From: an uncultured bacterium
GTDB lineage: Bacteria; Cloacimonadota; Cloacimonadia; Cloacimonadales; TCS61
DNA length: 64,000 nucleotides
Assembly: GCA_965370415.1 (NCBI GenBank)
Contig: CBDUTJ010000013.1
Location: 2,030 to 66,029, forward strand
Direction: 5' to 3'
Part shown: one piece after another, positions 19,673 to 48,068 of the stretch
How positions within the stretch are numbered: position 1 is the stretch's first letter
Layout: each line of letters starts with the position of its first letter
Made by a program: the position numbers and the translations under genes
The notes under the pieces: model-generated
The model's input: only the letters and a program-made list of their open reading frames with translations
Told to the model about the DNA's origin: nothing
The model's database searches: none

Positions 19673-19791
19673 TTAAAAGATCTAAAATGGAAGATAATTT
19701 TGTTTATGTAGTTTTAGATAGAGCAAAATAGACATGCATATTATCAACAGAACGGGGTTTTGAAGGAAAAAGGAAGCCAAATGGCTTCCCT

Positions 19792-19960
19792 TTATTTCAA
19801 TAAAATCATCTTCTTAACTTTCTGATAATCACCGGCTTTTAGCCTATAGAAATAGATTCCTGAGCCCTGTTTATTCGCATTCCATGGATAATCATGTTTA
19901 CTTGCATTTTGTAGCGGAGTGGAAAAATGACAGGTGAACAATTTGTTATGCTGAAGAGTT
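19792..19960 (-). pseudogene. orphan 3' fragment of a T9SS sorting domain
   Basis: Translates to ...TPLQNASKHDYPWNANKQGSGIYFYRLKAGDYQKVKKMILLK*, with an upstream in-frame stop and no N-terminal part. It is followed by the hairpin GGAAGCC-ATTT-GGCTTCC plus a T-run (19772-19789). Confidence 0.65.
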
Positions 19961-20135
19961 TATTCTCCGGCAAATTAGTTCTCTTTTACCAATTGGTACA
20001 ATTAAGCTATCAAATTTTGTATTTTTCATAACTTTATCAATCATTGGTTCAATTGTTTCATAGTGATTAATTGCATTATCCGCTACTATCATAGCATTCT
20101 GAATAATTTTTGAATTCTTTAAAAAATGAGAGCGT

Positions 20136-20378
20136 CTATAATAAAGATTTCAAAATTTCATCCCTGATCTTTTGTAAATTATTTTTTACTTCGACCCAAT
20201 CACTATAAAAGTAATATTCTCGTATATTCATTGAAGTTCCGTCTTTGAAATAAATAGTAAAATACCAATATCCCAAACTTGTAAAATCTCTGGATTTCAC
20301 ACTTTCCAAATCACCAATATTCTTAATCTTTGAGATATCGATTTCTTTACCATCAGGAAGAATATAAATTTCTAACAT
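20136..20378 (-). CDS. hypothetical 80-aa protein
   Basis: ORF only; no recognisable motif. It sits at the breakpoint that truncates the upstream isomerase-like gene. Confidence 0.35.
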   Translation of the reverse strand: MLEIYILPDGKEIDISKIKNIGDLESVKSRDFTSLGYWYFTIYFKDGTSMNIREYYFYSDWVEVKNNLQKIRDEILKSLL

Positions 20379-20524
20379 AATACATCACTATTTTTTAATA
20401 TACAAAATTTTTTCCCGTTTATACTGCAAATTTCAACGCCTTCAAAACCATATTTTTTTGCGGAATTCACAACTTCATCGATAGACCAATTCGGACATCC
20501 TAATGTACTGAATGCAAGTTTCAT
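20372..20524 (-). pseudogene. 5' fragment of a sugar-phosphate isomerase/epimerase (xylose-isomerase-like TIM barrel) gene
   Basis: Manual translation MKLAFSTLGCPNWSIDEVVNSAKKYGFEGVEICSINGKKF... matches the characteristic N-terminus of that family, then ends after 50 codons. Its ATG overlaps the upstream gene stop as TAATG, which suggests operon coupling. Confidence 0.5.
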
Positions 20525-26500: not shown

Positions 26501-26883
26501 AAGACACCGGGAGTAGAAGTATCAATCATCCAGCCAAGTGCAGTGCCACCATTAGTTGTAAGAATGTTCGGTTCATAAGTAATGGGATTTATAGCAGTAG
26601 CGGTTATATACTCAAGCTGATTTGAGTTATAGTTAGCTTCAAATTCATAAGTGTCTAAATTATGAACATTTATAGCATAGACATCCAACCTTATGTAATC
26701 ACCCACACCAGGTGTTGTCATTGTAGTATCATTCTGGTTGCCATAAGTTGTAGTATTCAAGTCAAATCTTATACCAGCATTCTCATTAGGACCTCTTTTA
26801 TTCCTAAAAGTATCCGGAGCTGTTTGAGCTATCAGTAAAGCTGTAATTACAAATAGACATAATAAAATAATTAATTTTTTCAT
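23530..26883 (-). CDS. large secreted multidomain protein: cohesin-like module, carboxypeptidase-regulatory-like domains, Ig-like repeats, possible clan-CD-like peptidase region, T9SS sorting domain
   Basis: Start at MKKLIILL (GGAGGG RBS). The N-terminal module is paralogous to 27001 and 28038. GTVTDLDTGEPIEGAIVSIGN and GTVTDANTNEPIEDALITA are CarboxypepD_reg-like. There are two copies of VFYSIDNG.NW.FI.SH.GNPQ. ...VTSGHGNHNQW... and ...FFGLGNCNIGQ... are present. C-terminus [14 protein letters not shown]...GIYFYKM...VKKMILLK. Confidence 0.8.
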   Translation of the reverse strand: MKKLIILLCLFVITALLIAQTAPDTFRNKRGPNENAGIRFDLNTTTYGNQNDTTMTTPGVGDYIRLDVYAINVHNLDTYEFEANYNSNQLEYITATAINPITYEPNILTTNGGTALGWMIDTSTPGVLSIAYTLAGTDTLEAPEGEGLIADIVFQVLSTIGDSLTFGDVYFYDSFGVMDIITDKGIAILYAFGNVDGTVTDLDTGEPIEGAIVSIGNISDITEFDGTYLLEYIPVGIHDITCTAEGYYDSSDVVEVLEGQTVTYDFILEPIILYGSLNGTVTDANTNEPIEDALITAISQARVEYTGFTNADGYYIIDSLLVSELVGNYTVTCDAGYSYILGEVTEVEIIVDITTTIDFALNSTVTVDIPNGGEVWVVGEIHQIQWTAEVYLVINSDSVFYSIDNGTNWIFIASHSGNPQVCEWLIPNTPSTECLVKVIVYDGGANSATDISDAVFTIDADVTPPTVEVIEPNGGEDWGTYEWHSVTWNSDDNVGVVTDSVFYSIDNGINWTFIVSHAGNPQNFSWQVPNTPSEECLIKVQVFDASNNFAEDISDGTFIISYVEPPPLTYAVIIKQTTYNDPDWQAVADALLARYGGQLFIWESSLNEVQDDVAEYYPSHIGFICDMSTASPNFIQSYVWPFTRALDDDAYCDAVWGIITGYNAQDALNLVSGPTGFEVKTCIGGTTSCNVNYYTQGISTSEATYNRYYVKYPDALEVVEFNDGPTDRTEWLVTMVNEGVDIFNYDPVDIFVTSGHGNHNQWQLHYPTSGQEGFFRSSNGQAYGDPYSGPDINIDSDTPKIFFGLGNCNIGQILGGSSMAPCWIHTAGAYQYTGYLIGEGGSSCQHGGTKAYFYKVARSNTWAESYFLSNIALKFDMLNSTPGASPNDLNGSALYGDPGMDIKMSNEGVFMEPLFTNELTINEGTERDTITYRITMNREGNPGFTSKWGERHPAIILPLKAEDIQIIYTDAIAVVVEDNFALMYIWYQGQPSLAEGETREVIFTCNHTITNIDEQIILEITKARLYQNYPNPFNPTTTFSFTTTESTENTELVIYNLKGQKVKQLVSGQLSAGQHSVVWDGKDENGKSVSSGIYFYKMISEGNSGRYTSVKKMILLK

Positions 26884-27000: not shown

Positions 27001-27771
27001 TTAATTATTTGCAGTAATTCTGTAAAACTTTTTTAAACCAACAATATCAATAATTACTTCACCAATATCAGTCACTGTAGCTTCCAGAGTATTAAACAAA
27101 CCATTTGGATCATCATCGCTGTAAATATTGTATTCCAAACCCTCGTTAACCCAGGTGATTTTGATACTATCTCCATCAGCAACTATTTCAATATTTACAT
27201 TTTCAGGTGGATCAGGAAGTAGTATAGTTAATATAGCAGTACCCTTATCGGTGATGATATCCATAACCCCAAAGGAATTGTAGTAGTAAACATCTCCAAA
27301 GCTCAGCGTTCCATAAGTATCTACAAGAGACAGAAATACAATGTCTGCAATTAGTCCCTCTCCTTCCGGTGCTTCAAGAGGATCTGTGCCTGCTAATGTA
27401 TAAGCAAGGCTTAGGACTCCCGGAGTAGAAGTATCAATCATCCAACCGAGTGCAGTACCACCATTAGATTCAAGGATGTTCCCTTCAAAAGTGATGGGAT
27501 TTGTAGCTGTAGCTGTTACATATTCAAGCTCTGATGAGTTATAGATTACTTCAAACTCATAGGTATCTAAATTTTGAACTTCAGTACAATACACATCTAA
27601 ACGTATATAAGTTCCTGCAGATTGTGAGGGTACGCTGGTCAGATTCTGGTTACCGGGAGTGGTTGCATCCAGATCAAAAACTATACCTGCATTCTCATTT
27701 GGACCGGCAAAAACTAGTGACCTGAAAAATAAACTTATCCCTAATATTAAAATTAATCTTTTCTTTTTCAT
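27001..27771 (-). CDS. secreted cohesin-like module protein with FN3-like C-terminus (no T9SS domain)
   Basis: Signal peptide. The module GPNENAGIVFDLDATTPGNQN...LIADIVFLSLVDTYGTLSFGDVY is essentially identical to part of the 28038 gene. C-terminus PPENVNIEIV...ITWVNEGLEYNIYSDDDP...KKFYRITA. Confidence 0.8.
   Translation of the reverse strand: MKKKRLILILGISLFFRSLVFAGPNENAGIVFDLDATTPGNQNLTSVPSQSAGTYIRLDVYCTEVQNLDTYEFEVIYNSSELEYVTATATNPITFEGNILESNGGTALGWMIDTSTPGVLSLAYTLAGTDPLEAPEGEGLIADIVFLSLVDTYGTLSFGDVYYYNSFGVMDIITDKGTAILTILLPDPPENVNIEIVADGDSIKITWVNEGLEYNIYSDDDPNGLFNTLEATVTDIGEVIIDIVGLKKFYRITANN
27241..27705 (-). repeat. near-identical duplicated segment (copy A) of the cohesin-like module
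   Basis: Aligns at a constant offset of 1841 nt with 29082-29546. The core at about 27309-27692 looks base-for-base identical by eye, and identical spurious plus-strand ORFs appear in the track at 27534 and 29375. Confidence 0.8.
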
Positions 27772-28037: not shown

Positions 28038-30569
28038 CTATTTCAGTAACATCATTTTCTTCACTTCAGAATAGCTTTCAGATTTCAGTTTGTAGAAATA
28101 AACTCCGGAAGCATTATCTTTTGAATTCCATTCGTAGTTATGAGCACCAGCTTCAAAGATTTTGGATTCGACTGCCTGACCTTTAATGTTGTAGATAGTC
28201 AAGTCAGCAGTTTCACCTTCTTTGATGTCGAATTGAATAAATGTGGTCGGGTTGAATGGATTCGGATAGTTACCATAAAGTAATGTTGTAGATGGAAGTT
28301 CGGGAATGATTGCACCCTCTGGAATGGTAAGTGAAATAGGACCGTAAATTCCAGTATCATTGGAATAGCTCACGTTCTCTAACCAATACCAGTAGGTGTT
28401 ATTTTCCACAACCGGGTATTCATCCTGGAAAGTATAATCTGTAGGTTCGGAAGTAGTTCCTGCACCTTCGATCAATCCTGCTACATTAATTTGAATAGTA
28501 TTATCATCTTCGAGAGCAGTATCGCTTTCGCCACGATAGATATTCCAACCCATATTGTTGCTTTCACTTTGAGTAGTCCACAGGATATTTAAATTATCTG
28601 CATCAAACTCAGCTGCAAAGTTTGTTAGTGTTACTGGAAGAGGATTATCATCACCATTTCCCATAACGTACCATGAGAAACTAGTTGCAGTAAATGTAAC
28701 ATAATAAAGTGATGTTAATAGATTCCAGCTTGTTGCAGTAGCTTCTTGCCATGAGCTTCCACCATCTGTGCTGACTACTATTATGGGATCACTATTTCCA
28801 ACAGGAACAGGAGTAGCCCAGGTAAAAGTAACACCTACAGGAAATCCACCTGTATAGCCTGATGCATCAATATCAAACCATAAATTTAGTGCATTACCAG
28901 GAAATGGTAAGGTTCCGGGTGGAGTATCATATTGACTTATAGTAATGCTGCCACCACCTGCAGGTGGGTCTATTGTAACAGTGCTTCCACCAGATCCACC
29001 GCCACCGTCAAAATCAAAATCAACAGGGTTTGCATCTGGAATGGGTAAAGTGACTGCTTCGCCTTCACCAATCGAAGCTGTACCCTTATTTGTAATGAGA
29101 TCCATTACACCATAGGTATCGTAAAAGTAAACATCTCCAAAGCTAAGAGTTCCATAAGTATCTACAAGAGACAGAAATACAATGTCTGCAATTAGTCCCT
29201 CTCCTTCCGGTGCTTCAAGAGGATCTGTGCCTGCTAATGTATAAGCAAGGCTTAGGACTCCCGGAGTAGAAGTATCAATCATCCAACCGAGTGCAGTACC
29301 ACCATTAGATTCAAGGATGTTCCCTTCAAAAGTGATGGGATTTGTAGCTGTAGCTGTTACATATTCAAGCTCTGATGAGTTATAGATTACTTCAAACTCA
29401 TAGGTATCTAAATTTTGAACTTCAGTACAATACACATCTAAACGTATATAAGTTCCTGCAGATTGTGAGGGTACGCTGGTCAGATTCTGGTTACCGGGAG
29501 TGGTTGCATCCAGATCAAAAACTATACCTGCATCCTCGTTTGGTCCTCTTCCATTCCTCCCGCCTTGACCGGATCTTGTTGGAGGTGCGCCTTCGTGCCA
29601 GTGGTCTCCGAAAACCTGAAGGTCGGCAGCATCAATAATATTATCCGGCACCAGGTCGTAAAGAGCATCCCAACCCGGATCTGTATCAACAAAATGCCAA
29701 TGGTCACCCAATAACTGCAAGTCTGCAGCATCTACATAACCATCAGAATTGAAATCACCTATAATGGGCGGCATGACTTCAATAATACGATTATGAAGAT
29801 AATCAGCTATTAATGTATTACCATTATCCAGACGCTCAGCATCCTCTGGGTTATTAAGTCCAGTACTGTAATCCCATACTATTGTGCCGTCTGTTTCCAC
29901 CTCTATCACGCTGTCACCGCCAGTAATCAATGTATTACCACTTGGCAGACGTTCTGCATCATAGGGGTAGGTAAAACTAGTGCTGTATTGCCATACTATT
30001 GTGCCGGCTGTGTTGACTTCAATAACTTCGTTTTTCTTTGCGATCAATGTATTACCGTTCGACAGGCGTTTAGCATCAGTTGGGTAATTATAATAACCAC
30101 CAATGGTATAGGTCCATACTATTACACCGGCTGAAGTTACCTCTATCACTTTTGAATGATAATAGTCATCTATCAATGTATTGCCACTCACCAAACGTTG
30201 AGCACTCCTTGGATAATAAAGTCCAGTATTGTATTGCCATACTATTGTGCCGGCTGTGTTCACCTCTATCACGCGATGATTAGAATAATCACAAATCAAT
30301 GTATTACCATCCGATAGGCGTTCAACACTAGTTGCATTATGAATTCCAGTATTGTATTCCCATACTAATGTGCCGGCTGTGGTTAGCTCCTGCACGGTAT
30401 TTATCCCACCGAACAATGTATTACCATTGGACAAACGTTCAACAGAGCGTGGGCCGTTAAGTCCTGTGAGTTCCCAAACTATTGTATTCGCCATTGCTGG
30501 TTTAGGTAACCAGGCAATGATAGCTATTGCTATCATGAGTATGTAAATTCCTAATCTTTTATTTTTCAT
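28038..30569 (-). CDS. secreted beta-propeller / dockerin-like / cohesin-like fusion protein with T9SS sorting domain
   Basis: About 7 repeats of GTIVW.Y.TG...P..AERL.NGNTLI. GDFNSDGYVDAADLQLLGDHW plus DLVPDNIIDAADLQVFGDHW form paired dockerin-type Ca-binding segments, followed by the cohesin-like module. C-terminus [14 protein letters not shown]...GVYFYKLKSESYSEVKKMMLLK. Confidence 0.85.
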   Translation of the reverse strand: MKNKRLGIYILMIAIAIIAWLPKPAMANTIVWELTGLNGPRSVERLSNGNTLFGGINTVQELTTAGTLVWEYNTGIHNATSVERLSDGNTLICDYSNHRVIEVNTAGTIVWQYNTGLYYPRSAQRLVSGNTLIDDYYHSKVIEVTSAGVIVWTYTIGGYYNYPTDAKRLSNGNTLIAKKNEVIEVNTAGTIVWQYSTSFTYPYDAERLPSGNTLITGGDSVIEVETDGTIVWDYSTGLNNPEDAERLDNGNTLIADYLHNRIIEVMPPIIGDFNSDGYVDAADLQLLGDHWHFVDTDPGWDALYDLVPDNIIDAADLQVFGDHWHEGAPPTRSGQGGRNGRGPNEDAGIVFDLDATTPGNQNLTSVPSQSAGTYIRLDVYCTEVQNLDTYEFEVIYNSSELEYVTATATNPITFEGNILESNGGTALGWMIDTSTPGVLSLAYTLAGTDPLEAPEGEGLIADIVFLSLVDTYGTLSFGDVYFYDTYGVMDLITNKGTASIGEGEAVTLPIPDANPVDFDFDGGGGSGGSTVTIDPPAGGGSITISQYDTPPGTLPFPGNALNLWFDIDASGYTGGFPVGVTFTWATPVPVGNSDPIIVVSTDGGSSWQEATATSWNLLTSLYYVTFTATSFSWYVMGNGDDNPLPVTLTNFAAEFDADNLNILWTTQSESNNMGWNIYRGESDTALEDDNTIQINVAGLIEGAGTTSEPTDYTFQDEYPVVENNTYWYWLENVSYSNDTGIYGPISLTIPEGAIIPELPSTTLLYGNYPNPFNPTTFIQFDIKEGETADLTIYNIKGQAVESKIFEAGAHNYEWNSKDNASGVYFYKLKSESYSEVKKMMLLK
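29082..29546 (-). repeat. near-identical duplicated segment (copy B) of the cohesin-like module
   Basis: See 27241-27705. Confidence 0.8.
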
Positions 30570-31076: not shown

Positions 31077-31316
31077 TTATTTTAATATAACACATTTCTT
31101 AGTATCCTTAAAATCACCGGCAGTAATACGATAGAAATAGATTCCGGAACTTATATCCTCAGCATTCCAAACAACAGAATAATTACCTGCCTGTTGAAAT
31201 TCATTAACAAGTGTTTCTACTAATTGACCTTTGATATTATAAATCTTTAGTGACGCTTTGCTGGATTTCGGAAGAGCATATGAAATTGTAGTTTGCGGGT
31301 TAAAAGGGTTAGGATA
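31077..31316 (-). repeat. near-identical 240-bp duplication of the T9SS sorting-domain coding end (copy A)
   Basis: Matches 32483-32722 with only 2-3 mismatches by eye. The proteins differ by K to T in ...GDF(K/T)DTKKCVILK. Confidence 0.8.
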
Positions 31317-32468
31317 ATTATTTAAAATAAAAGAAGCATTTTCTATAGATGTTGTCATCTCATCATCAATTCCAACTGGTATTATTGGGCTGGCATACTC
31401 CAGGTCATAAGCATTCTGGTCGAAATAAGCGATACGAGGATGCTCCTGGTTATCTAAAGCTATTCGACAGTACCAACCGCCTCCCATTGGTTGGTTTACT
31501 ACCTCATTATGCCAATTTGAGCCATCCCAATATTTATACCATAAATTCCAGTTAGAACCAAGAGCTTGGTAATAAGCAATATGAGGAAAATCCTGGCTGT
31601 CTAATACAAGTGAATTAAAAGCTCCCGCATAATTTTCGCCGATTGTTGTAATGATCCAATCTGAACCATCCCATCTTGCATATCTCATATCACCACTATC
31701 TCTATAATATATTATGTGTGGAAAATCCTGGCTGTCCAATTTCAATGAAATATCTATGCTGCCAACATTTCCCCCGAAATATTCTACAAAATAGAAATCC
31801 CAACCGGTACCGTTCCATTTAACATAATTAAGGTTATTACCGTCTCCATAATAGGCAATACACGGGTTATCATTGGAATCAAGTTCAAGTGAAGTACCCC
31901 AGGCAAGACCATTAGACACAATCTCAATTTCCCAAGTTTGACCATTCCAGGATGCGTATTTCAAACAGTCACCGTAATTATCATAATAACTGATATGTGG
32001 ATATCCCAGACTATCAAGTTTTAAAGAATTAAATTCACCAACCCGCCCTGATTCATAATCTACCACCTGAAGGTCCCAGTATGTTCCTGTCCAAACAGCA
32101 TATTTAAGACAATAACTATCACCATCATCCCCTGTATAACTGATATGTGGATGATTATTACTATCTATTGCAATAGAAGTAACATCAGCAACAGGATATG
32201 TAATGTTTGACTGATCCACCATAGAGATTTCCCAATCTGTTCCATTCCAGAAGGCATATCTGATTATACTTGGTGGTGGCATATTAGGATAAAGTCTGCC
32301 TATGTAATAAGCAATATGTGGATAGTCAAAGTTATCAAGAGCAAGCGAAAGGTATCGTCTATGTTGATTTAATAAATCAGGATCAACAACCTCTATCTCC
32401 CATTCATAGGCAACAATTGCTCCTGAAATACCCAGAAGCATAACTATTAAAGCGATTACTTTTTTCAT
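31077..32468 (-). CDS. secreted repeat (propeller-like) protein with T9SS sorting domain
   Basis: About 8 repeats of LDS...PHI(A/S)YY......L.YA.W.G..W. C-terminus [33 protein letters not shown]...[22 protein letters not shown]. Confidence 0.8.
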
Positions 32469-32482
32469 GATATTCTACTCCT

Positions 32483-32722
32483 TTATTTTAATATTACACA
32501 TTTCTTAGTATCCGTAAAATCACCGGCAGTAATACGATAGAAATAGATTCCGGAACTTATATCCTCAGCATTCCAAACAACAGAATAATTACCTGCCTGT
32601 TGAAATTCATTAACAAGTGTTTCTACTAATTGACCTTTGATATTATAAATCTTTAGTGACGCTTTGCTGGATTTCGGAAGAGCATATGAAATTGTAGTTT
32701 GCGGGTTAAAAGGGTTAGGATA
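32483..32722 (-). repeat. near-identical 240-bp duplication of the T9SS sorting-domain coding end (copy B)
   Basis: See 31077-31316. Confidence 0.8.
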
Positions 32723-35700
32723 GTTCTGCCTCAAAGCAAATACCTTAGGAATATGAAGTGTAGGATCTTCAACACCGACGCTTATTACATGCAAAGTTAC
32801 AGGTATATTTACCAGTGAGTTTGCTGAGTTATTGTCTATCAGAATATTCGTTGAGTAGGTAGAGTCAGGTGTCAAACCATGCGTATCAAAGTGTATGTTT
32901 ATATCAAGTGGTTGACCAGCTGGAATAGTACCAGATGTGGGGTTAACAATTAGCCATGGGACAATAACACCTGTTCCCTTAAATGTAATTCCTGTAAATC
33001 CAGAGTCATTCAAGCCACCTGTAGAGAGGATATAAGGAATATCAGCACCAACATAGACGGCACTAGTCATGCCCAATGTCTGGGGTAGTGATGTTTCGTA
33101 GGACCAGGTATCAGTGGCAGGATCATAAACTTGAACCTGATTCGTAGCAGGCCAGCCCGAATAACCACCCCCACCACCAACCTGGTAGATATGGGTACCG
33201 TTTGTGGTAACATTAGACCAGTTAAAGCCAACATAATCGGGCATTGGTGCTTTAATAGTCCAGGTATCAGTTGAAGGCTCATATTCATAGAGAGTATCAG
33301 CATAAATCCAACCACCGGGATCCAACCCACCAACCACATAAAATTTACCGTTAAGAAGGAAAACACCTCCGCAGATTTCGTTAGGTAAAGGCAAATCAGC
33401 AATAGAAGTCCAGATATCTGTGGCAATATCATACTTGTAGGAATTAAGTACACCTGTATTCCCATTATATCCGCCGGCAGTATAGATAATTCCATAAGTT
33501 TCATCACCAGCAGCAGCAAGCATGCAAATAGGCTCTGGATACTCAGCAAGTTGTGTCCATGTTCCAGTCCCTGACCCATCAGGAGTAAATTTGTAGAAGT
33601 CGGTGCAAGGAACATAGTAGTATCTTCCGACCACATACAGTTCTCCGTTAACCACAACACCTGTCCAATTGTCGCCACCGATAGGAGGTGGAGTTGAGTT
33701 AACCCATGTTTCAGTACTTACTTGCCATGCCTGAGCACAATATGGATCATCTTGGGTTCCAAATACATAGACATAATCGCCAATCCAACCTATGGCTGAT
33801 CTCCCACTTGTATTAGGAGAAGGAGCTACAGTATTCCATGTAATGGTGTTTCTTAATTCTTCCATTATTGGCTCAGCAAAGCCATAAGAATGAGCCAAAT
33901 CTGCATTTCCCGTACAAGGATTACAATAACCCCTATTCTTAACAGGCTTGATTTCAATATCTGGGGTGCGCTCACTCCCACCCGGATAGTAAGTGATATT
34001 GAATGTAAGAGGTCCATTTCCATTATTAATAATTTCCATAGTAGTATCAAAAGTAGTATCAATTCCCACATTAACTGTAAAACTCATTGGCTCAACAGCT
34101 ATCTCAGGGTGCAACATAGCGAAATTAACAGTGGTTATATCATTTTCAACTACAACTATACCGGTGTTATCAAAAATGTTGTAACCAAACGCGGTAACTC
34201 TCATATCATAAGTATCTGGAAGCACCTCTTGCATAAAGTAGTGTCCTGTTGCATCAGTAGTATCACAATAAGTTAGTGAACTACCTGCTGCTGTAACCAC
34301 TGCATTTTCAATTGGTTGTCCATTTTCTGCATCTGTAACTATTCCTTCAATAGCACCAACATCACCGGGTATTACAATAAAGATGCCATCTGTCGTCGCC
34401 ACTGCTGGGATGCCTTGGTTGTACATAAAATTAAGGAAATTCAGCATACTCGCCTGCCCCGGCACAACATCGGGTGAGACTTCAAATATCAGATTGATTA
34501 AGGTTCCGCTACCGGCAAGTGTATCTGCTCCAGCCATCTCAACTGAGATCTGTCCTTGAACTACATTGTAGTCACACACCCAGTCAGTCCCTGCAAGCAA
34601 GGTGCCAGAGATATCTATATCAACTCCAGTAATAATAGTATAATCATAACCCAGTGTGAATTCAGCAGATAGAACTCCCTCTCCTGTTAAATCTTCTGTA
34701 TTGACAGGTATGGTTATTGTATCACCTGGTGCACCGTAAGTAGTCTCAGGAACAGAAATAGCTATATAGTTCAGAGGGTCGGGTTCTGTTTTAGCAAGAT
34801 ATAGTTTCATAGTCGAACCACTAGGCCAGTCATATCCAGCCACTATATACCCATTATCAGGGGCAATTTCAAGGGAGTGGAGGTAATTATAACCATAACC
34901 TGGTAGCCATTGCATCCAGATCATATCGCCTTCGGAGTTTGTTCTCATTAGTATGCTTGTTGCTTCGTAAGCTAAAGCGAGGATATAGCCACCATCAAGG
35001 GTTTGCCGTACATAGGAGCCCACACAATACATACCGGGTTCTGTGTACATCCTGGTCCAGAGTGTATCACCATCAGAGTCAGTCTTAACGACATAAGGTC
35101 TAAGAGCATTACCATAAGTACCATATCCGCTAACGATATAGCCGCCATCTGTGGTCTGCTGTACAGATTGTCCCCTTCTCCCATCCGGAAATGTCCTTGT
35201 CCAGAGTGTATCACCCACAGAGTCAGTCTTGACAAGACTGACATCACTTGGTCCAGCACCACCTCCAGTACTTCCGGTAACGATATAGCCACCATCTGTG
35301 GTCTGCTGCACATCCCACGCCCAGTAAGGACCACAATATTTTGTCCACATTACGTCACCCGCTGAGTCGATTTTGTGTAATGTCATTTTTTGACCACCAC
35401 TATTCCATCCCATACCAGCAATAATATAGCCTCCATCAGAAGTACGGGAAATAGAATTACCTTGGGAAATCGTAGTATAGGTTCTTGACCAGACCGTATC
35501 TCCTACGGTATTCACTTTAAGGATGAAACATTTCAAAGAAATACCATTCCAATCGCCATATCCTGTAGCAACATAGCCACCATCGGAGGCAAGGTCAACA
35601 GAATAAAATGCTTCATTACCTGCATTGAAAAAATCGTATCTCCTTGTCCAGATAGTATCACCATCAGAGTTGACCCTAACGAGATAATAATCCTTATCCT

Positions 35701-37369: not shown

Positions 37370-37392
37370 TAAAAAAGAGGGATTTACCCTCT
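37370..37392 (-). terminator. rho-independent terminator after the VWA gene
   Basis: Minus-sense AGAGGG-TAAAT-CCCTCT followed by TTTTTT. Confidence 0.7.
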
Positions 37393-37418
37393 TTTAGATA
37401 GTGAGAATAAACATCCCA

Positions 37419-38534
37419 CTATCCCATATGTATCACCTCACCAAAAGGTGGTTTGAAGTTAGCTTTATCTGTTAGAATCCACAAAGTCGGATAATCAGGT
37501 GGTTCCGGAAATGAATCGCAATATCCATCTGTGAAATAGATAACACAGGATGGCAAAATATCTTCTTGCTCAATATAAGCAAATCCCGGTTTGAAGTCTG
37601 TACCACCACCCCCTTTGGCATGAAGCTGGAAATCATAAATATCGATGGTTTCGATATTAGCTACTTTGGAATCCACATAGATGACCTTGATCTCTGTCCC
37701 CGGATAAATAGACAAAATTGCCTGTAATTCAGCTGCAAATATATCCAGTTCTTTCTGTGAGACCGAACCGCTGGTATCAATAATAACAGCAATTGTTCCG
37801 AGCGTGGGAACATTAAGCCCGGGAAGATACAATCCGGAATACAGATAACGCTTATTGGGCTGTTTCCAAGTATAATCATTCCTGGCATTTTCTGTAATGA
37901 AGCGAGATAATATCTCTTTCCAATTAAGCTTCGGTTGTAAGGTCTCCTGGATCATTCTCTCCAGACCAGCCGGAAGTTTACCCTGAGCCTTGGCAACCGC
38001 TGCTGCACGTGCTATTGTTATTTTGCAGTTCTTGATCTGCTGGGGAAGAGTGTTTGCGTGGCTACTCTTACTATTGCTCCTGTCCTGCTTGTAATCTCTC
38101 ACTTCGCCCATGAGGGCAACTGCAACTGGTATTTTAATGGATTTGGGAAGTTGGTTATAGATCACTTCTGCTTCCAGATCCTTGAACTTAGAATCAGATA
38201 ATGCTCCTTCGGGAAGTGAAAATCCGGAATCTTTAACGATGGGATTAACTGCATAATCGCAGGCAACATTCCACTTAAGATGTTCTCTGCTGTTTTTTCT
38301 GAAAGGATGGAGCATAGCGATATGAAGAACTTCATGACAGATGACGGCCTTTAATTCGGCATTTGATAGTTTATCAATAAACTGAGGATTATAACCCAGT
38401 ACTACCGAATCCGTATAAGCTGTCTCACATTCAGTGTCTTCCTCCAACCTCAATTGAAGAGCAATAGAGGCAAAAAAAGGGCTTGAAAGAACCAGTCCCG
38501 CTCTCGCTTTGGTTAGTTTCTTTATTGTTTCCAT
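37419..38534 (-). CDS. zincin-like metallopeptidase (HExxH) fused to a VWA domain (DUF2201-like architecture)
   Basis: AVICHEVLHIAMLH contains HExxH. AVIIDTSGSVS is a DxSxS MIDAS motif. 371 aa, with its start 1 nt after the upstream stop. Confidence 0.8.
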   Translation of the reverse strand: METIKKLTKARAGLVLSSPFFASIALQLRLEEDTECETAYTDSVVLGYNPQFIDKLSNAELKAVICHEVLHIAMLHPFRKNSREHLKWNVACDYAVNPIVKDSGFSLPEGALSDSKFKDLEAEVIYNQLPKSIKIPVAVALMGEVRDYKQDRSNSKSSHANTLPQQIKNCKITIARAAAVAKAQGKLPAGLERMIQETLQPKLNWKEILSRFITENARNDYTWKQPNKRYLYSGLYLPGLNVPTLGTIAVIIDTSGSVSQKELDIFAAELQAILSIYPGTEIKVIYVDSKVANIETIDIYDFQLHAKGGGGTDFKPGFAYIEQEDILPSCVIYFTDGYCDSFPEPPDYPTLWILTDKANFKPPFGEVIHMG

Positions 38535-38535
38535 A

Positions 38536-39042
38536 TTACCCCGCTTTAGCTAATTTTTTTTCTGTCTCTTTTTTCTTCTTCGCTTTTTTCATCTTTATCC
38601 TGTTGAACACTTTCTCTGCATCACTATGTAGATCGGCTTTTTCGTAAGTTTCATATAAGTAGCGGTCTTCCAGCATAGCCTCCAACACTTTTTTCGAAAT
38701 ATCCTTGAAATATTCAACAGCATAATGATACAGGTTGGGTTTTTCGCTATTATCTGATATTATCATATGCTTTAGTATCTGATCTTTCTGGAGGAAATTT
38801 TCTTCATCAGCATAATCACCTGCAATTACAATTCTATCGCCAGCCCAACTACCGATTATGGGGTCATCTGAGTGAAGATCACCTCCGCCGCGTCCGTTTC
38901 CATCTGATAGCAATACAGCCAGCGCTGTCATGGTCCCTTCTCTACTACAGCCAAATTCCAGGAGCTTTGCCCCATCATTGAAGGTATAGGTATTCAGAAA
39001 TTCCTGCTTATCGAGATTAACTATCTTGTAATATTGTCCCAT
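38536..39042 (-). CDS. hypothetical protein (168 aa), conserved-looking, function unknown
   Basis: MGQYYKIVNLDKQEFL...LLSDGNGRGGGDLHSDDPIIGSWAGDRIVIAGDYADEE..., with a lysine-rich tail. ATG at 39042 with GGAGGA upstream. Confidence 0.6.
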   Translation of the reverse strand: MGQYYKIVNLDKQEFLNTYTFNDGAKLLEFGCSREGTMTALAVLLSDGNGRGGGDLHSDDPIIGSWAGDRIVIAGDYADEENFLQKDQILKHMIISDNSEKPNLYHYAVEYFKDISKKVLEAMLEDRYLYETYEKADLHSDAEKVFNRIKMKKAKKKKETEKKLAKAG

Positions 39043-39054
39043 ATATTCCTCCAC

Positions 39055-39903
39055 TTAAGCTGCCGGCAGGTAATGCCGCATCTTATTCAGGATCTTCTGT
39101 GCTTCCATAGCGGTTTTGTTCCTGATATTGTCATCTTCTCTCAATGTTTGAGGATCGTGTTTGGTAAGTTTAGTTTTGATCTCCTGAACCGAAGATTCAA
39201 GATCCGGATCATCTGTGATATTGAGTTTAGGAAGAAGGTCACATAACTCGCTGATATTGTTCACAAGACTATTTTTGAATTTATTGTCGACTTTCTTCAA
39301 CCTCTCCACCATGTGTTCTACAACCTTGAATAATCTCTGCCAGAGATCTTTCATGGCTGTTTCGGTTGCTTCTCTCACCTGTTCTTCAATCGATTCTTTT
39401 ATGGCTTCGATCTCCTCATTATTTAGATTAACCCGGAAATCATCTGCGACGGGTACCGGAGATACCTGGGTTGAGAACGAATATTTTGTGTTTAATGTTA
39501 AAACATCAGGGTAATCTTCTTCATCATACATGCTGTTCAATCTGTGCTGCGCTTCACTCTTCAAAGCAGGATAAGCTCTGATGAAATTCTCAACCTCATT
39601 TTCATACTGATCCTGAAACTTCCGAATAGAATTTACATAGTTGAAGTAATTTGCTGCTGGTAAGAGCCGTCCCCCATTATCCAGCCAGGGAAGAGTATTG
39701 TCATAATGAAAGTTCCTGGCTTCTGAAGCTATCTTCTGAATCTTACATATTGAAGCTTTAGCAATAAGTAGTTTATTATATCTACCCGCATCCTTGGAAT
39801 TATGAATACTTTCAACTTCCTCCGATATCTTACGATCATATTTTCTGGCTGTCCAGGCACCAATATTCAGATAAATTAACATCGTTTTTTCAGTTAAAGA
39901 CAT
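39055..39903 (-). CDS. hypothetical protein, DUF3150-like (tentative)
   Basis: Start reassigned to the ATG at 39903 (AAAGGAGGA RBS), 20 nt after the AAA+ gene stop. MSLTEKTMLIYLNIGAWTARKYDRKISEEV...RLLPAANYFNYVNSIRKFQDQYENEV.NFI..Y recalls DUF3150 from memory only. Confidence 0.55.
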   Translation of the reverse strand: MSLTEKTMLIYLNIGAWTARKYDRKISEEVESIHNSKDAGRYNKLLIAKASICKIQKIASEARNFHYDNTLPWLDNGGRLLPAANYFNYVNSIRKFQDQYENEVENFIRAYPALKSEAQHRLNSMYDEEDYPDVLTLNTKYSFSTQVSPVPVADDFRVNLNNEEIEAIKESIEEQVREATETAMKDLWQRLFKVVEHMVERLKKVDNKFKNSLVNNISELCDLLPKLNITDDPDLESSVQEIKTKLTKHDPQTLREDDNIRNKTAMEAQKILNKMRHYLPAA

Positions 39904-39922
39904 GTTATCCTCCTTTATTTTT

Positions 39923-40924
39923 TTACAACACCACATCAGCGTGTTTGATCGCCCATGCAGAGAACTCTTTCGTATTCGCCAGTGACTTGTTCCGTTTGAT
40001 TGCATCTTTGATCAATAAGACCTGGAACTCTCCAGGCAAACGATTGGTAAACCTGATGATATTGGCGAAGTTCTTTTTATCAGCTTTGGCTGAAAGAGCA
40101 CCACAGACCGCATAGAGAGTGGATGGTTCAGTGGGAACTTCCGCCTTATCAGGGTGAGCGATCAGCTTCTCAATATCGGGGAGTTCCTTATATACCTTCA
40201 GAAATCCCAGGAACTCTGCTGCAAAGCCCTCTCCTGCTGCTCCCGAGATCATTTCGAATTCAGTATCTTGGGGCAAACCTGCATTCATCATCTTACCTAC
40301 ATAAGCTACCGTTCTGGGATTTGGTGTGTTGATGATATCAGCTGTAGGTTTAAAGTCGTGTAGCAAATTAGGTCTAAACCTGATAAAAGCTATCAGTTCT
40401 GTTGGCATATTATTATTAATTGCCCACTCTACCCAGTCATCAATATTAACATCTAATTCTAAAATAGCAGAGAATCTACTCTTCACCGGTTCCAGTATTC
40501 CCTGAACTGCTGCTCTATCTTGTCTTCTGTTAGTAGCAGCAAGGAAGATTACATGCTCTGAAACCTTATGACCATTGATTTTACGTGCCAACAGTAGGTG
40601 CATACAAGATGCTTGAACTGATGCCGGAGCCTGTCCCAGGTCATCGAGAAAGAAGACAGTAGGCTTTTCTGCTTTTATTAATTGAAGCAGATCACCAAAG
40701 GGTAAAAAAGTTGCTTCTGTTCCGTCTTTAATTGGAAACGGCAATCCTTTGAAATCAGTTGGGTCAGATACTACAGGATGGTTAACTATAAGCTCAGTGC
40801 CTGTCTCCAGACAGGCTTGAGTTAAAATTTCTGTCTTTCCTATACCCGGGCTTCCTTTAATAAGCAATGGATATTTGTTTTTAATAGCAAATTTAATTGC
40901 CTGGTTTAATTGTTTTGGACGCAT
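39923..40924 (-). CDS. MoxR/CobS-class AAA+ ATPase (AAA_5-like)
   Basis: Walker A LIKGSPGIGKTE, Walker B VFFLDDLGQA, sensor-1-like FLAATNR. Start at MRPKQLNQ (AAAGGAGAA RBS). Confidence 0.85.
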   Translation of the reverse strand: MRPKQLNQAIKFAIKNKYPLLIKGSPGIGKTEILTQACLETGTELIVNHPVVSDPTDFKGLPFPIKDGTEATFLPFGDLLQLIKAEKPTVFFLDDLGQAPASVQASCMHLLLARKINGHKVSEHVIFLAATNRRQDRAAVQGILEPVKSRFSAILELDVNIDDWVEWAINNNMPTELIAFIRFRPNLLHDFKPTADIINTPNPRTVAYVGKMMNAGLPQDTEFEMISGAAGEGFAAEFLGFLKVYKELPDIEKLIAHPDKAEVPTEPSTLYAVCGALSAKADKKNFANIIRFTNRLPGEFQVLLIKDAIKRNKSLANTKEFSAWAIKHADVVL

Positions 40925-40954
40925 ATTATTTTCTCCTTTATTGTTTTTGGACAT

Positions 40955-40979
40955 AAAAAAAAGCCGGATTTTCACCGGC
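40955..40979 (-). terminator. rho-independent terminator between the 116-aa gene and the AAA+ gene
   Basis: Minus-sense GCCGG-TGAAAAT-CCGGC followed by TTTTTTTT, only about 30 nt before the AAA+ start codon. Confidence 0.65.
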
Positions 40980-41009: not shown

Positions 41010-41360
41010 TTATTCTACAGGTTCACCTTTTTTTCTTTCATAGACAAGATTATAAGCGATCCCTTTTTCAATACGATATCCCCATTTTGAACTATCTTCT
41101 CCGATAAATTCAATGTCTCCATCTTCCAAAAAGGAAGCCAGTTTCCTGATCCATTTTTCATCATGAGACCACTTGGCATACAAGTCCTCACAACAGAACC
41201 AGCCATCATCGTCAAGCTCCAACCAGTCCAATTCATATTCCCAATCTTCAGCTATATTAGCAGAGATTTTAAGTTTTATCTCAGACAGGAGTCCACGGAC
41301 ATCTTTCATGCAGTCATCTTTTACACAGGGATCTATGATTAAAGTGCTGTAATATCCCAT
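41010..41360 (-). CDS. hypothetical acidic 116-aa protein
   Basis: ORF with GGAGG RBS. DWEYELDWLELDDDGWFCCEDLYAKWSHDEKWIRKLASFLEDGDIEFIGEDSSKWGY. No family recognised. Confidence 0.55.
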   Translation of the reverse strand: MGYYSTLIIDPCVKDDCMKDVRGLLSEIKLKISANIAEDWEYELDWLELDDDGWFCCEDLYAKWSHDEKWIRKLASFLEDGDIEFIGEDSSKWGYRIEKGIAYNLVYERKKGEPVE

Positions 41361-41371
41361 GACGAAACCTC

Positions 41372-42130
41372 CTAAACTGCTTCTTTCATTTTGTCGATCA
41401 GAAGCTGGGCTTTGAGTTCACGACTGATGTCTTTTTCAATTTCAGTGATAGAAATAACTTTTCTCCAGCTTCCCATAGAGGGCAGACGTCCTACTCTCTG
41501 TTTATCAGTATCTAGATTTTCATCGAAGAAGGTTATTACATCAACGATCTGCTCATAATCGAAGTGTGAACCATTCAGCTCTACCCGTAGCTTACCTGAC
41601 TTGAGTCTTCTGATGGAAAAGTCTGAAGTGTAACTGTGATGGTCTTTATTCCGCAGATATTCCTCAACAGTAATATTGGCATTATTGCCAGCGTATGAGG
41701 TAATATATTGGATCTTGCCGCAAGTCAGCAGAGGCCACTCGGCTGAATATGAGGTATCTTCATAATTTAGTCCTTCCACATATCCTGCATCCAGCCAGAA
41801 CTCTTGCTCAATAAGCGACAACGCCTTTTCCACCTTCATCTTTTTCCAGAGGAACTGGGAGTATTGATCACCTTGCGGAAATCCCTCAAAATAACAGCCA
41901 TAGGCGATCATTCCTTTTTTCTTCTGTAAGATCAGAACCGCATTCCCGGGATTGCAGGCATAGGCAGCAGGGCGGGCATCCTTCTCTACATAGCTGAGAA
42001 TAGTCCTGGTATTGCTGTAAGCAACCTTATGAGCCCACCTGTTAGTAAAGCTGCCGACTACTCCGTGTCTATCCACAAGACTCAGGATCTCACTGATCCT
42101 GGGCATTTTTTTTATATCTGATACTATCAT
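41372..42130 (-). CDS. hypothetical 252-aa protein
   Basis: ORF with AAAGGAG RBS. No family recognised. Confidence 0.55.
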   Translation of the reverse strand: MIVSDIKKMPRISEILSLVDRHGVVGSFTNRWAHKVAYSNTRTILSYVEKDARPAAYACNPGNAVLILQKKKGMIAYGCYFEGFPQGDQYSQFLWKKMKVEKALSLIEQEFWLDAGYVEGLNYEDTSYSAEWPLLTCGKIQYITSYAGNNANITVEEYLRNKDHHSYTSDFSIRRLKSGKLRVELNGSHFDYEQIVDVITFFDENLDTDKQRVGRLPSMGSWRKVISITEIEKDISRELKAQLLIDKMKEAV

Positions 42131-42411: not shown

Positions 42412-42609
42412 CTATTTTGTTGTCTTGTTTTGCCTGAATTTTGATGTAACTTTAATGGTAGTTTTTATATCTCTGTCGAACCAGAGATAAATATAACCTC
42501 TTTTCTTGGCTTCTTTGATCAGTTCCCGGAAACGGTCAGAATAGTTTCTGTAATAACCGTTATCAAATAAGACATAATAGACAGCACCTTCTTCCCGGGT
42601 ATATATCAC
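42412..42609 (-). CDS. hypothetical small protein (65 aa), overlaps the recombinase 3' end
   Basis: GTG-start ORF ...EEGAVYYVLFDNGYYRNYSDRFRELIKEAKKRGYIYLWFDRD, with a globular-looking composition. It overlaps the recombinase ORF by 47 nt in another frame. Confidence 0.3.
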   Translation of the reverse strand: MIYTREEGAVYYVLFDNGYYRNYSDRFRELIKEAKKRGYIYLWFDRDIKTTIKVTSKFRQNKTTK

Positions 42610-43933
42610 TCAAAAATAACATTTTGCTATCATAGTTTCTTGTTGTCCAAAGATCACTTAATTTATTTATCTCTTTAAAGTTCATTATTATATCACGAAT
42701 ATTCAATAAGGCATTAGAGAATTGATTGAATTTCTTATTATTGCGTGCTTTAAGATTATTGAGATATTCTAACTCCGCATTATATAGATCATCAATCTCT
42801 GCAATACTAACCTTTAGGTTATGCTTAACAATATTCTTAATCTCATCATCAATTAATTTATTCTCATCTATGGTATCTTCTCTTATTTCTATTATTTTTT
42901 TTTGAAATAACTGTATGTAGTTTAGAAAGTCGTAGACATAGCCTACTGTGTCTGGATTAACGTAATCAAAGGTGTCTAAATATTTAACGAATTCCATATG
43001 GAGAAGTTCATTTTTCATACTGATATTACATTTGTTACAATTATAGTAAATCCGCGAACCTGTAAAAGAATGTCCACAATTCTCACATAAAAGCCAATTA
43101 CGTAAAGGAAGGTCTTCATTTTTTAGCATTCTTTTCTTCCTTTTCTTTCTATTAGTTTTACTCGTTATCAATTTTTGAACAGCATTATATGTGCTAATAT
43201 TTATAATCGGAGGTATATTTCCCTTTTTCCACTTACCCTTATTATCCTTCACGTATCCAGCATATTTTTTGTTCTTTAGCCTAAACCTTAACGTATTATA
43301 ATGAATCTCCCCATATCCTTCTTTATATAGCTCTGATTGGATTTCTTCGATGGAATAACCCGCCAAAGCCAAGGAAAATATCCTTTTGATTTCATTTTTA
43401 TCATCAGGATTGATACTTAAACGACCCTTACTACCATCGAATACAATTTTGTAACCTGTTGCAGGTCTTCCCCATGATTTACCATTCGATATTTTATTTT
43501 GTATAGCCTGTTCAGTAGTTTTTGAATTAATAATTATCTCTAATTCTCCTTCTACGGCTATTTTTGCAAAAGTTAAATACGATTCTTTACCACGAAGTTT
43601 GGAGTGGGTACAGTCAATAAACTCAATCTTATATTTCTTTAAAATCTTAATTAGATTAATTGCAATTTCAGCTGACCGAGCCATGCGCTTACTATCAGCA
43701 ACAATCAGATAACCAATTTCTTTTTTATTTTGATGGATGAATGCTTCCATTGCATTTAATTCACTTCTTCCTGGATTATCACCTTTAGCTACTTCAGAAA
43801 ATATCTTTAATACACTTGAATTTAATTTTTCCACTTGCGAACGACAGACCTTCTTTTGGTGAGTTAGCGTGTTGTTCTTAGAAAATTGTCTTTGTGTGCT
43901 AAGACGAGAATAGATTAAGGATTTCTTCATCAA
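42563..43933 (-). CDS. large serine recombinase
   Basis: N-terminal resolvase catalytic pattern LIYSRLSTQRQ...GYLIVADSKRMARS, a recombinase-domain region, and Cys pairs (CENCGHSF...YYNCNKCN) typical of the zinc-ribbon insert. 456 aa. Confidence 0.8.
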   Translation of the reverse strand: MMKKSLIYSRLSTQRQFSKNNTLTHQKKVCRSQVEKLNSSVLKIFSEVAKGDNPGRSELNAMEAFIHQNKKEIGYLIVADSKRMARSAEIAINLIKILKKYKIEFIDCTHSKLRGKESYLTFAKIAVEGELEIIINSKTTEQAIQNKISNGKSWGRPATGYKIVFDGSKGRLSINPDDKNEIKRIFSLALAGYSIEEIQSELYKEGYGEIHYNTLRFRLKNKKYAGYVKDNKGKWKKGNIPPIINISTYNAVQKLITSKTNRKKRKKRMLKNEDLPLRNWLLCENCGHSFTGSRIYYNCNKCNISMKNELLHMEFVKYLDTFDYVNPDTVGYVYDFLNYIQLFQKKIIEIREDTIDENKLIDDEIKNIVKHNLKVSIAEIDDLYNAELEYLNNLKARNNKKFNQFSNALLNIRDIIMNFKEINKLSDLWTTRNYDSKMLFLSDIYPGRRCCLLCLI

Positions 43934-46718: not shown

Positions 46719-47819
46719 TCATTTAAAATATTCATCTAATAAATCAATGGCTTTATCTTTTCTACTATCCACGAGATGAATATATTGCATTGTGGTTTTT
46801 ATATTTTTATGTCCCATCAGCTTCATTATTGTAAAGACACTCTCTCCTTTTGCAGCTAAAAGCGTTCCAAAAGTATGCCGCCCACTGTGAAAAGTTATTT
46901 TCTGATTAATACTTTTAGAATTAATCCACTCTCTAAACCTCTGAGATAATCTTCCTCCTGTTGGTATACTAAAAATTCGATCTTCCTTCATATTTTTCTT
47001 TTGTTCCTTTATTATTCCAAGGGCTATTGTATTGAGTTTAATCCGAACAGTTTCACGGGTTTTTTTCTGACGAAAATATAAGTGCTTCTCCTTAATATTA
47101 TTATGGGTAATTCTGTTAAGATCTGAACGTCGAAGTCCTGTAAAACAAGAAAACAAGAATCCATTTTTTATTTGGAAGTATTTGCATGGTTTCTCAATAA
47201 GTTCCTTTACTTCAGTAATTGTTAAAAATTCAATTTGGGGATCATCGTATTTTATACTAATTCCATTTGCCGGATTTCTGTCTATTAACTCAGACAATAC
47301 TGCCAGATTAATAACAGCTTTGAATGTGACAAAATAATGGTGTGCAGTATGAGCTTTAACAGGTAGTCTGAGCAGGTAATCTTTATACTTCAAGCAGATA
47401 TCTCGTGTCAGTTCACTGAAAAGAAAAGTACTCTTATTAATAAATTCTTTAAAATAATTCAAAGACACTGTATAATTATAATCTTGCTTTTGCTGAACTG
47501 TTTCTTCAAAAAATTCCATGAAATTTTTATCGTTATCTTCAGAAAAGAGCTTGATCCCGGAATTAGATTCGTATATTTCCTTTTCTTTTTTATCCCTTAT
47601 TAATTTTGCTTTATTGATCTCGTTCTCATCTTTAATTTTACTCCTGCTATCCCCTGCAACATATAATCCAAGGGATTTCCTTTGTCTTGAACTTTTGTAT
47701 GAATAATCAAGATATAAACTATATAATCCATTCTGCATCTTTCTAGCACAGATCTTAATTTGGTAACCTGTATTCATCTTACTCAATTTATCAATAATTT
47801 TCGGAATTGAATTTTTCAT
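46719..47819 (-). CDS. tyrosine recombinase / phage-type integrase
   Basis: C-terminal catalytic pattern ...GLRRSDL...FHSGRHTFGTLLAAKG..VFTIMKLMGHKNIKTTMQYIH (R, H-x-x-R, H, Y), plus an N-terminal SAM-like domain. Confidence 0.9.
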   Translation of the reverse strand: MKNSIPKIIDKLSKMNTGYQIKICARKMQNGLYSLYLDYSYKSSRQRKSLGLYVAGDSRSKIKDENEINKAKLIRDKKEKEIYESNSGIKLFSEDNDKNFMEFFEETVQQKQDYNYTVSLNYFKEFINKSTFLFSELTRDICLKYKDYLLRLPVKAHTAHHYFVTFKAVINLAVLSELIDRNPANGISIKYDDPQIEFLTITEVKELIEKPCKYFQIKNGFLFSCFTGLRRSDLNRITHNNIKEKHLYFRQKKTRETVRIKLNTIALGIIKEQKKNMKEDRIFSIPTGGRLSQRFREWINSKSINQKITFHSGRHTFGTLLAAKGESVFTIMKLMGHKNIKTTMQYIHLVDSRKDKAIDLLDEYFK

Positions 47820-47984: not shown

Positions 47985-47992
47985 TGAAAAAA

Positions 47993-48068
47993 TGGTGGAG
48001 CATAGCGGGATCGAACCGCTGACCTCATGACTGCCAGTCATGCGCTCTCCCAGCTGAGCTAATGCCCC
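47993..48068 (-). tRNA. tRNA-Ala (anticodon GGC), CCA encoded
   Basis: The reverse complement GGGGCATTAGCTCAGCTGGGAGAGCGCATGACTGGCAGTCATGAGGTCAGCGGTTCGATCCCGCTATGCTCCACCA folds as a cloverleaf. The anticodon loop is CTGGCAG, the G3:U70 alanine identity pair is present, and the T-loop is GGTTCGATCC. Confidence 0.9.

Follow-up and report, generated by a model that had tools for sequence, protein, structure and literature searches.

A phage N4 gp24/gp25-type AAA+/zincin-VWA gene pair with a DUF3150-like third component on a small phage-derived island

What is the tightly packed set of four genes at 37419-40924 on the minus strand of the window (the whole 64,000-nucleotide stretch of contig CBDUTJ010000013.1, from an uncultured Cloacimonadota bacterium), and what could it do for the element that carries it? 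The initial annotation had described an operon between two terminators, encoding a MoxR-class AAA+ ATPase, a protein tentatively related to DUF3150, a 168-amino acid protein (p168) and a fusion of a zincin with a von Willebrand factor A (VWA) domain. All four open reading frames (ORFs), both terminator-like hairpins and every motif named in it were located in the sequence, and the motifs are kept in homologues. The locus is a module of the type formed by genes 24 and 25 of coliphage N4 (products gp24 and gp25), here in a three-component version that includes DUF3150, and it lies on a small phage-derived island. The four genes are separated by 19, 12 and 1 nt, and an AAAGGAG ribosome-binding site is repeated ahead of three genes of the block. 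The features of the locus are as follows.

39923-40924, minus strand: AAA+ ATPase of the midasin/MoxR/dynein (AAA_5) type, homologue of N4 gp24, 333 amino acids
39055-39903, minus strand: DUF3150-like protein, 282 amino acids
38536-39042, minus strand: p168, member of a large unannotated phage family, 168 amino acids
37419-38534, minus strand: zincin-VWA fusion, homologue of N4 gp25, 371 amino acids
37371-37394, minus strand: downstream hairpin with a U-run, resembling an intrinsic terminator, at the operon end (sequence read and folding)
40955-40979 (stem 40963-40979), minus strand: upstream GC hairpin with U8, ~30 nt 5′ of the AAA+ start codon (folding and spacer alignment)

The downstream hairpin is stable (dG -17.5 kcal/mol, z -4.6; none of 200 shuffles was equally stable), and the hairpin at 40963-40979 with its U8 is weaker (dG -10, z -2).

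The 371-amino acid protein matched DUF2201_N (PF13203, E 1.6e-52, 179 bits) and DUF2201 (PF09967, E 5.8e-27, 95 bits), far over the cut-offs, as well as phrog_1314 (E 1e-100), and BLASTP aligned it with N4 gp25 over the full length (29% identity, E 6e-45). The sequence HEVLHIAMLH at residues 67-76 (38307-38336) fits the pattern HExxHxxxxH; in 17 sequences H67, H71 and H76 were invariant and E68 nearly so, as for an HExxH motif with a third metal ligand. Profile links to known zincins were weak (minigluzincin MJ1213, 0.008; M48 peptidases). The metal-ion-dependent adhesion site (MIDAS) is complete, with DTSGS at residues 253-257 (37764-37778), GGGGT(D) at 308-312 and (F)TDG at 335-337, and an alignment of 13 sequences, from N4, phiFa and the plasmids among others, shows these positions to be mostly conserved. 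Catalytic and MIDAS residues alike are conserved from a Thermus phage to N4 to plasmids. The VWA domain covers residues 248-370 of 371, reaching the C-terminus, and the N-terminal zincin is the sole additional domain. As judged by its sequence, the protein is a zincin metallopeptidase fused to a MIDAS-bearing VWA domain. The initial annotation took the protease as an extension of a MoxR-VWA pair at this locus; it is instead the standard architecture of a catalogued family (DUF2201_N plus DUF2201; PHROG 1314).

Three minor observations concern this gene. Annotations of the gp25 family in GenBank phages conflict (HNH endonuclease, metallopeptidase, VWA-like, DNA repair ATPase, anti-sigma factor). 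PHROG 1314 carries the wrong label 'HNH endonuclease', from which the HNH label appears to spread, and the domain content gives it no backing. At two related loci, L012 (9518-10626) and L013, the gene is broken into two ORFs of 242 and about 140 amino acids, so some copies of the module are decaying. Finally, 38302-38319, which holds the HExxH codons, matches 47990-48007, at the 3′ end of a tRNA-Ala gene described below, at 16 of 18 nt; the likeness was considered as an attachment (att) site and judged to be chance.

The AAA+ gene starts at an ATG that follows an AAAGGAG site: a longer ORF with a GTG start would begin within the upstream hairpin, and homologues begin with MRPKQ. The ATPase contains a Walker A motif (GSPGIGKT, residues 24-31; 40832-40855), a Walker B motif (FFLDD, residues 91-95; 40640-40654), a sensor-1 ATN and an arginine in KSRF, all conserved among homologues in the alignment. 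It matched phrog_1297 over residues 1-331 (E 1e-75) and was aligned by BLASTP with N4 gp24 over 313 residues, the full length (30% identity, E 9e-42). The Pfam cut-offs were barely exceeded (AAA, PF00004, 28.2 bits; AAA_5, PF07728, 23.6 bits against a cut-off of 22), and the best match by sequence in the PDB was the AAA domain of midasin (5.9e-11). The label 'MoxR-class' therefore stands in the broad sense of AAA_5, but not for MoxR proper, since the MoxR-specific AAA_3 (PF07726) gave no match at E <= 0.01. A match to nSTAND3 was under the cut-off and covered the P-loop only. In an orthologue at locus L014 (6720-8123; the same gene in L019) a 135-amino acid mini-intein is inserted 11 residues past Walker B, before the Cys of ...SVQAA|C.MxLLLAR.

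The second acidic position of Walker B separates two groups of loci. All 22 loci of one clade linked to DUF3150 have DD; DE was found in 35 loci without DUF3150 and 4 with it. The loci are mutually related and the counts not independent. The DD clade is possibly a slow-hydrolysis variant.

The initial annotation had treated the four genes as a co-occurring set. In IMG/VR, 54 viral contigs with the VWA gene were found, of which 46 included upstream DNA and were thus testable. An AAA+ gene lay within ~2.5 kb upstream of the zincin-VWA gene in all 46, DUF3150 was present in 11 of the 46, and p168 was near the pair in none of the 54. Hence the four-gene set did not hold up: the core is an obligate pair of two genes, a three-gene clade exists, and the form with four genes is confined to particular lineages. 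Among 50,697 GenBank phage records, 787 contain the zincin-VWA gene, as do 141 plasmids; phage carriers include N4-like, rV5-like, Rak2-like and other jumbo phages (350-390 kb), Thermus phage phiFa and Campylobacter phages. A DUF3150 homologue adjoins it on 62 plasmids, mostly of Burkholderiales, and in 3 cyanophage records. In the conjugative plasmids of Burkholderiales, the PRTRC cassette flanks the trio on one side and type IV secretion system (T4SS) genes on the other, and the module is also found on integrative elements of 7-10 kb without structural genes.

The closest relatives compare with the window as follows. N4 gp24 and gp25 share full-length homology, gene order and strand with the window pair, together with Walker A, sensor-1, the arginine, HExxHxxxxH and the MIDAS motifs, but N4 has DE in Walker B, lacks a DUF3150 gene and p168, and is a lytic phage, whereas the window copy sits on an integrative island. 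The trios of Burkholderiales plasmids (e.g., pBMC401) and of cyanophage MinM2 consist of the same three families in the same order, with DD in Walker B, at identities of 46-50% (AAA), 33-45% (DUF3150) and 36-38% (VWA) to the window proteins; they differ in lacking p168, p252 and p116 (the last two are introduced below). The families and the pair have been catalogued or described before; the DUF3150/DD clade, the six-gene block set out below and the p168 insertion are new. In N4, gp24 and gp25 are middle genes whose function is not known (PMC2784036, PMC4193335), and they are two of the 14 core genes of the strictly lytic N4-like phages (PMC4193335). The literature on DUF2201, DUF3150 and the phage VWA/AAA pair yielded no experimental study. 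A further idea, that the 'cobS-cobT' clusters of SXT/IncC elements might be the same module, was dropped, since the ten genera that most often host the plasmids include no enterobacteria.

The link of the 282-amino acid protein to DUF3150, put forward tentatively in the initial annotation, was borderline by score and was backed by homologues. The match to PF11348 (23.2 bits, E 5e-5, profile positions 2-211 of 257) fell below the gathering threshold of 24.9; many homologues at about 60-68% identity carry PF11348, two of them are named DUF3150 domain-containing protein by NCBI, and a cyanophage homologue is annotated as DUF3150. An AlphaFold2 model with a predicted local distance difference test score (pLDDT) of 83 shows an alpha/beta domain in its N-terminal part and a helical bundle towards the C-terminus, and it had no fold match in the PDB. 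In one sub-clade of the module, DUF3150 is the third subunit. Neither this protein nor p168 gave a significant match when sequence profiles were compared with the PDB; matches to capsid proteins (E about 0.4-0.7) were dismissed as noise.

p168 starts with MGQYY, as do its homologues, and its N-terminal ~85 residues are hyper-conserved (MGQYY...GNGRGGGD...GSWAGDRIVIAGDY): identity in this region is 50-60% across contigs assigned to distant hosts, and G2 and Q3 are invariant. Clustering of the homologues at 90% identity gave more than 2100 clusters, and a Pfam domain was seen in none of them; at 50% identity the family has 3078 representatives (E <= 1e-3), in which the domain nearly always begins at residue 1. 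Pfam, PHROG and NCBIfam all lack a model of the family, and p168 had no match among the 50,697 GenBank phage genomes. The protein reveals a very large, strongly conserved phage family without a Pfam model or a cultured-phage representative. The AlphaFold2 model (pLDDT 92.7) had no fold match in the PDB, and its sole BFVD matches were unnamed or SWIM-fused homologues. Long family members scanned for fusions contained no Pfam domains. Some relatives end in a zinc finger of the SWIM type, and in one the sequence is internally duplicated.

Members of the p168 family are located among small early genes of uncultured phages, jumbo phages included. The AAA/VWA pair was absent within 10 kb of p168 in 65 of 68 viral loci, and the three with the pair nearby (L056, L064, L075) have differing gene orders, so that enrichment of p168 near the pair is modest at best. 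No constant neighbour of p168 was found. Because three other small genes fill the slot between DUF3150 and VWA in cyanophage MinM2, we read p168 as a phage accessory gene, mobile in its own right, that was inserted at a variable slot. A gene for a small Peptidase_M78-like protein (HExxHIxLxH) was seen directly after p168 or ~1-3 kb upstream of it at 15 loci of two unrelated viral lineages (L004, 8438-8854; L028; L031; and related loci), an arrangement that echoes the adjacency of p168 and the zincin gene in the window. As a candidate partner of p168 it was set aside, two viral lineages being too little to build on.

The module of the window is itself part of a larger unit. Two genes, which the initial annotation had placed beside the operon, are indeed present there, but they belong to the same conserved block and are not separate from it.

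41010-41360, minus strand: p116, co-conserved 5′ of the module (same position in related elements)
41372-42130, minus strand: p252, co-conserved 5′ of the module (same position in related elements)

In Cloacimonadota-type contigs the conserved block comprises p252, p116, AAA+, DUF3150, p168 and zincin-VWA (loci L012-L016, L019 and L024), and a variant in L022 lacks p116 and p168. Homologues of p116 occupy the same position at all the loci with the complete block, and those of p252 do so there and in L022; both genes also have a homologue in viral contig L064. Only 12 homologues of p252 were found. Neither p116 nor p252 matched a family in Pfam, PHROG, PADLOC or NCBIfam, and the NCBIfam and PADLOC libraries returned nothing useful for the block proteins. 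Contig L064 (61 kb), from a temperate phage, holds all six genes in a different order, next to a large serine recombinase (integrase), a Sak4-like AAA_24 protein, a DnaB-like helicase and an exonuclease; relatives of the block have a Rad52-like or AAA_24 gene upstream. The ratio of nonsynonymous to synonymous substitution rates (dN/dS) relative to L014 was 0.08-0.20 for the five genes compared (0.17 for p116, 0.20 for p252), with dS about 1. For the AAA+ gene a value of 0.04 was obtained relative to L016, where dS is saturated.

When the spacers between p116 and AAA+ were aligned, L012, L014 and L022 had the hairpin and T-run; at L016 an unrelated hairpin stands instead. In the window the upstream hairpin is too near the AAA+ start codon to fit a promoter. 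It is probably an attenuator or read-through terminator within a six-gene unit, and the retention of a hairpin in this position across related elements suggests regulated read-through.

Locus L019 (JABMPU010000073.1) comes from a metagenome-assembled genome labelled Armatimonadota. Its identities to the window genes equal those of L014 (87% for zincin-VWA), and it appears to be the same element; its bin assignment may be wrong. L014 is flanked by type IX secretion system (T9SS) Por_Secre_tail genes that resemble those in the window.

The mobile-element setting described in the initial annotation was confirmed: by profile, the flanking genes encode a tyrosine integrase, an HTH_17 protein, a MerR protein and a large serine recombinase. 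The block follows the serine recombinase inside a stretch of ~10.7 kb that begins at a tRNA-Ala gene and the tyrosine integrase.

42563-43933, minus strand: large serine recombinase, directly 5′ of the block (PF00239 and PF07508)
46719-47819, minus strand: tyrosine integrase (PF00589, PF13102 and PF17293)
47993-48068, minus strand: tRNA-Ala(GGC) (ARAGORN and Rfam)
19506-19666, minus strand: relic of a zincin-VWA gene, 162 bp (tblastn and blastn)

The tRNA-Ala gene with the tyrosine integrase is the probable integration end of the island. A second copy of the 3′ end of the tRNA-Ala gene was not found at up to 3 mismatches, nor was there a convincing flanking repeat that would define the far boundary of the island. 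The Rfam scan returned the tRNA only.

The VWA fragment noticed earlier at 19.5 kb is real, but it is not a copy of the resident gene, being closer to a different element variant. Against the resident gene it reached 87.5% over 32 amino acids (tblastn) and 87.6% to 37424-37520 (blastn). Its best match is the variant at loci L020/L021 (86% over 162 bp), and for this reason we take it as the trace of an insertion by a second, related element. The relic includes ~65 bp past the stop codon, and so preserves the 3′ end of the zincin-VWA gene and the downstream hairpin, among fragments of other genes.

How might such a module work? Characterised AAA+/VWA pairs include RavA-ViaA, CbbQ-CbbO, NorQ-NorD, BchI-BchD, CoxD-CoxE and CobS/CobT, and midasin is paired with a MIDAS domain. 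Like the window pair, the RavA-ViaA-type pairs combine an ATPase of the same broad AAA+ group with a MIDAS-bearing VWA partner, and because the characterised pairs share this pairing we propose a common working principle. Two differences should be noted: the window proteins have no significant sequence membership in those families, and here the VWA partner carries a zincin. In the mechanism drawn from these pairs and from genomic context, the ATPase would form a ring and dock the VWA cochaperone, whose MIDAS site would capture a client protein by one of its acidic residues. Remodelling powered by ATP would expose the client to the fused zincin, or free it from the zincin, which would cleave it. 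DUF3150 may be an adaptor or regulatory subunit of the DD Walker B clade. The module would act early for the mobile element, in establishment, in replication/recombination or in the removal of host factors, and not in host defence or virion assembly. We favour an early role because these are middle genes of lytic phages, have replication/recombination neighbours, and are carried by plasmids and by islands without virion genes.

An ATP-driven remodelling and proteolysis complex that helps a mobile element to establish itself or to replicate is thus our best explanation, and we would give it about an even chance of being correct. Counter-defence or mobile-element maintenance, the fallback of the initial annotation, remains the best guess. 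Several points tell against such a complex. We infer its substrate, its stoichiometry and its proteolytic activity alike, and the roles given to DUF3150 and p168 are guesses, since their confident models gave no informative fold match. A DD Walker B could mean weak or absent hydrolysis. The split VWA gene in L012/L013 marks some copies as decaying, and for the island itself both the far boundary and present activity are unproven. Finally, for the jumbo-phage copies Iyer et al. (2021) favour a role in virion assembly (PMC7824862).

A more specific reading, which we regard as unlikely, would make AAA+/DUF3150/zincin-VWA a dedicated ATP-dependent targeting protease that destroys or remodels a host protein on cell entry, and hence a broad, unrecognised counter-defence or establishment system. 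Its users would be N4-like, rV5-like and Rak2-like phages, conjugative plasmids and small integrative elements; the host target might be, e.g., a defence factor or a DNA-bound protein, and p252, p116 and p168 might be lineage-specific regulators or decoys. If true, two of the five N4 core genes still without an assigned function would gain their first. Outside the N4-like phages, several more of the major lytic groups have kept the pair, as have conjugative plasmids. The present locus places the module on minimal elements without virion genes and adds a three-subunit clade with DUF3150 and a DD Walker B; because of these carriers and this clade, hypotheses shift from virion assembly and host defence to element establishment and replication. 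The function of the family is an experimentally tractable question, e.g., in N4 or on Burkholderia plasmids.

For the MoxR-vWA pair of Acidianus two-tailed virus a role in virion assembly has reportedly been shown, and by analogy the window pair might be a chaperone/protease that folds and processes tail or head proteins. We assign this a small probability. Such a role was suggested by Iyer et al. (2021) for group 2.2 jumbo phages, whose MoxR ATPase is paired with a vWA protein bearing a metallopeptidase at its N-terminus, the same architecture as here (PMC7824862), and the gp24/25 homologues of roseophage RPP1 have a second structural module close by (PMC4193335). An assembly role fits the plasmid and small-island copies poorly, however, as conjugative plasmids and the 7-10 kb elements carry the module without structural genes. 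Moreover, gp24 and gp25 are middle genes in N4, and the pair is not among the virion proteins of RPP1/RLP1, or among the N4 virion proteins cited with them (PMC4193335).

To much the same small degree, the locus may be an inert remnant of a decayed prophage whose genes have no present function here. The island, for which the search for an att repeat was negative, lacks structural genes and contains ORF-free stretches at 43.9-44.6 kb and 45.2-45.7 kb, and both the relic at 19.5 kb and the split genes of L012/L013 attest to decay elsewhere. On the other hand, none of the six ORFs is broken, the ribosome-binding sites are strong and the catalytic motifs conserved, the dN/dS values of 0.08-0.20 were obtained against a relative with dS about 1, and several genomes have this small block together with integrases.

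The initial annotation had listed a defence system among its candidates. In that case the pair would sense an invading phage or mobile element and release a protease effector, in the manner of vWA-MoxR conflict systems. This has little to commend it and is, in our view, quite improbable. The genomic-island location would suit it, and a GmrSD-like gene lies beside the related element in L014. Ternary MoxR-vWA systems have been proposed as conflict systems by Kaur, Burroughs, Iyer and Aravind (2020), who defined them by VMAP, an inactive STAND (iSTAND), an FtsH-type ATPase or a beta-propeller (PMC7159879). They resemble the window in having a core of MoxR-like ATPase and VWA protein with linked components, but they differ in these third components and in variable C-terminal effectors, both absent from the window, and they belong to multicellular bacteria rather than to phages and plasmids. 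None of the six proteins matched PADLOC-DB 2.0 (E <= 0.01), none contains a VMAP, iSTAND, FtsH or beta-propeller domain by Pfam, and the VWA protein has no variable C-terminal effector. The pair is core to the strictly lytic N4-like phages (PMC4193335) and is found in rV5-like and Rak2-like phages, and in the window the module is not among defence genes.

A CobS/CobT-like or other metal-cofactor-insertion chaperone, i.e., a housekeeping or auxiliary-metabolic chelatase, is very improbable: the AAA+/VWA architecture is common to BchI/BchD, CobS/CobT, NorQ/NorD and CbbQ/CbbO, and the ATPase weakly matched phrog_249 'porphyrin biosynthesis' (7e-7), but the match to phrog_1297 is far stronger, the N-terminus of the VWA protein is a peptidase domain and not of chelatase type, and no cobN or cofactor gene is among the ORFs profiled in and around the island (those of the rest of the window were listed, not profiled).

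Two further observations concern the window outside the island. The region 19200-20520, in which the VWA relic lies, is made up of gene fragments without a long ORF; besides the relic it contains the N-terminus of a xylose-isomerase-like TIM-barrel protein and the tail of a T9SS sorting domain (19792-19863, similar to 31077-31148), and a terminator-like hairpin follows each of the three. Adjacent genes that encode T9SS-sorted surface proteins have nearly identical stretches in common (96% and 98.8%; 27235-27705 and 29076-29546; 31077-31319 and 32483-32725; 26317-26805), which suggests recent gene conversion or duplication among paralogues.

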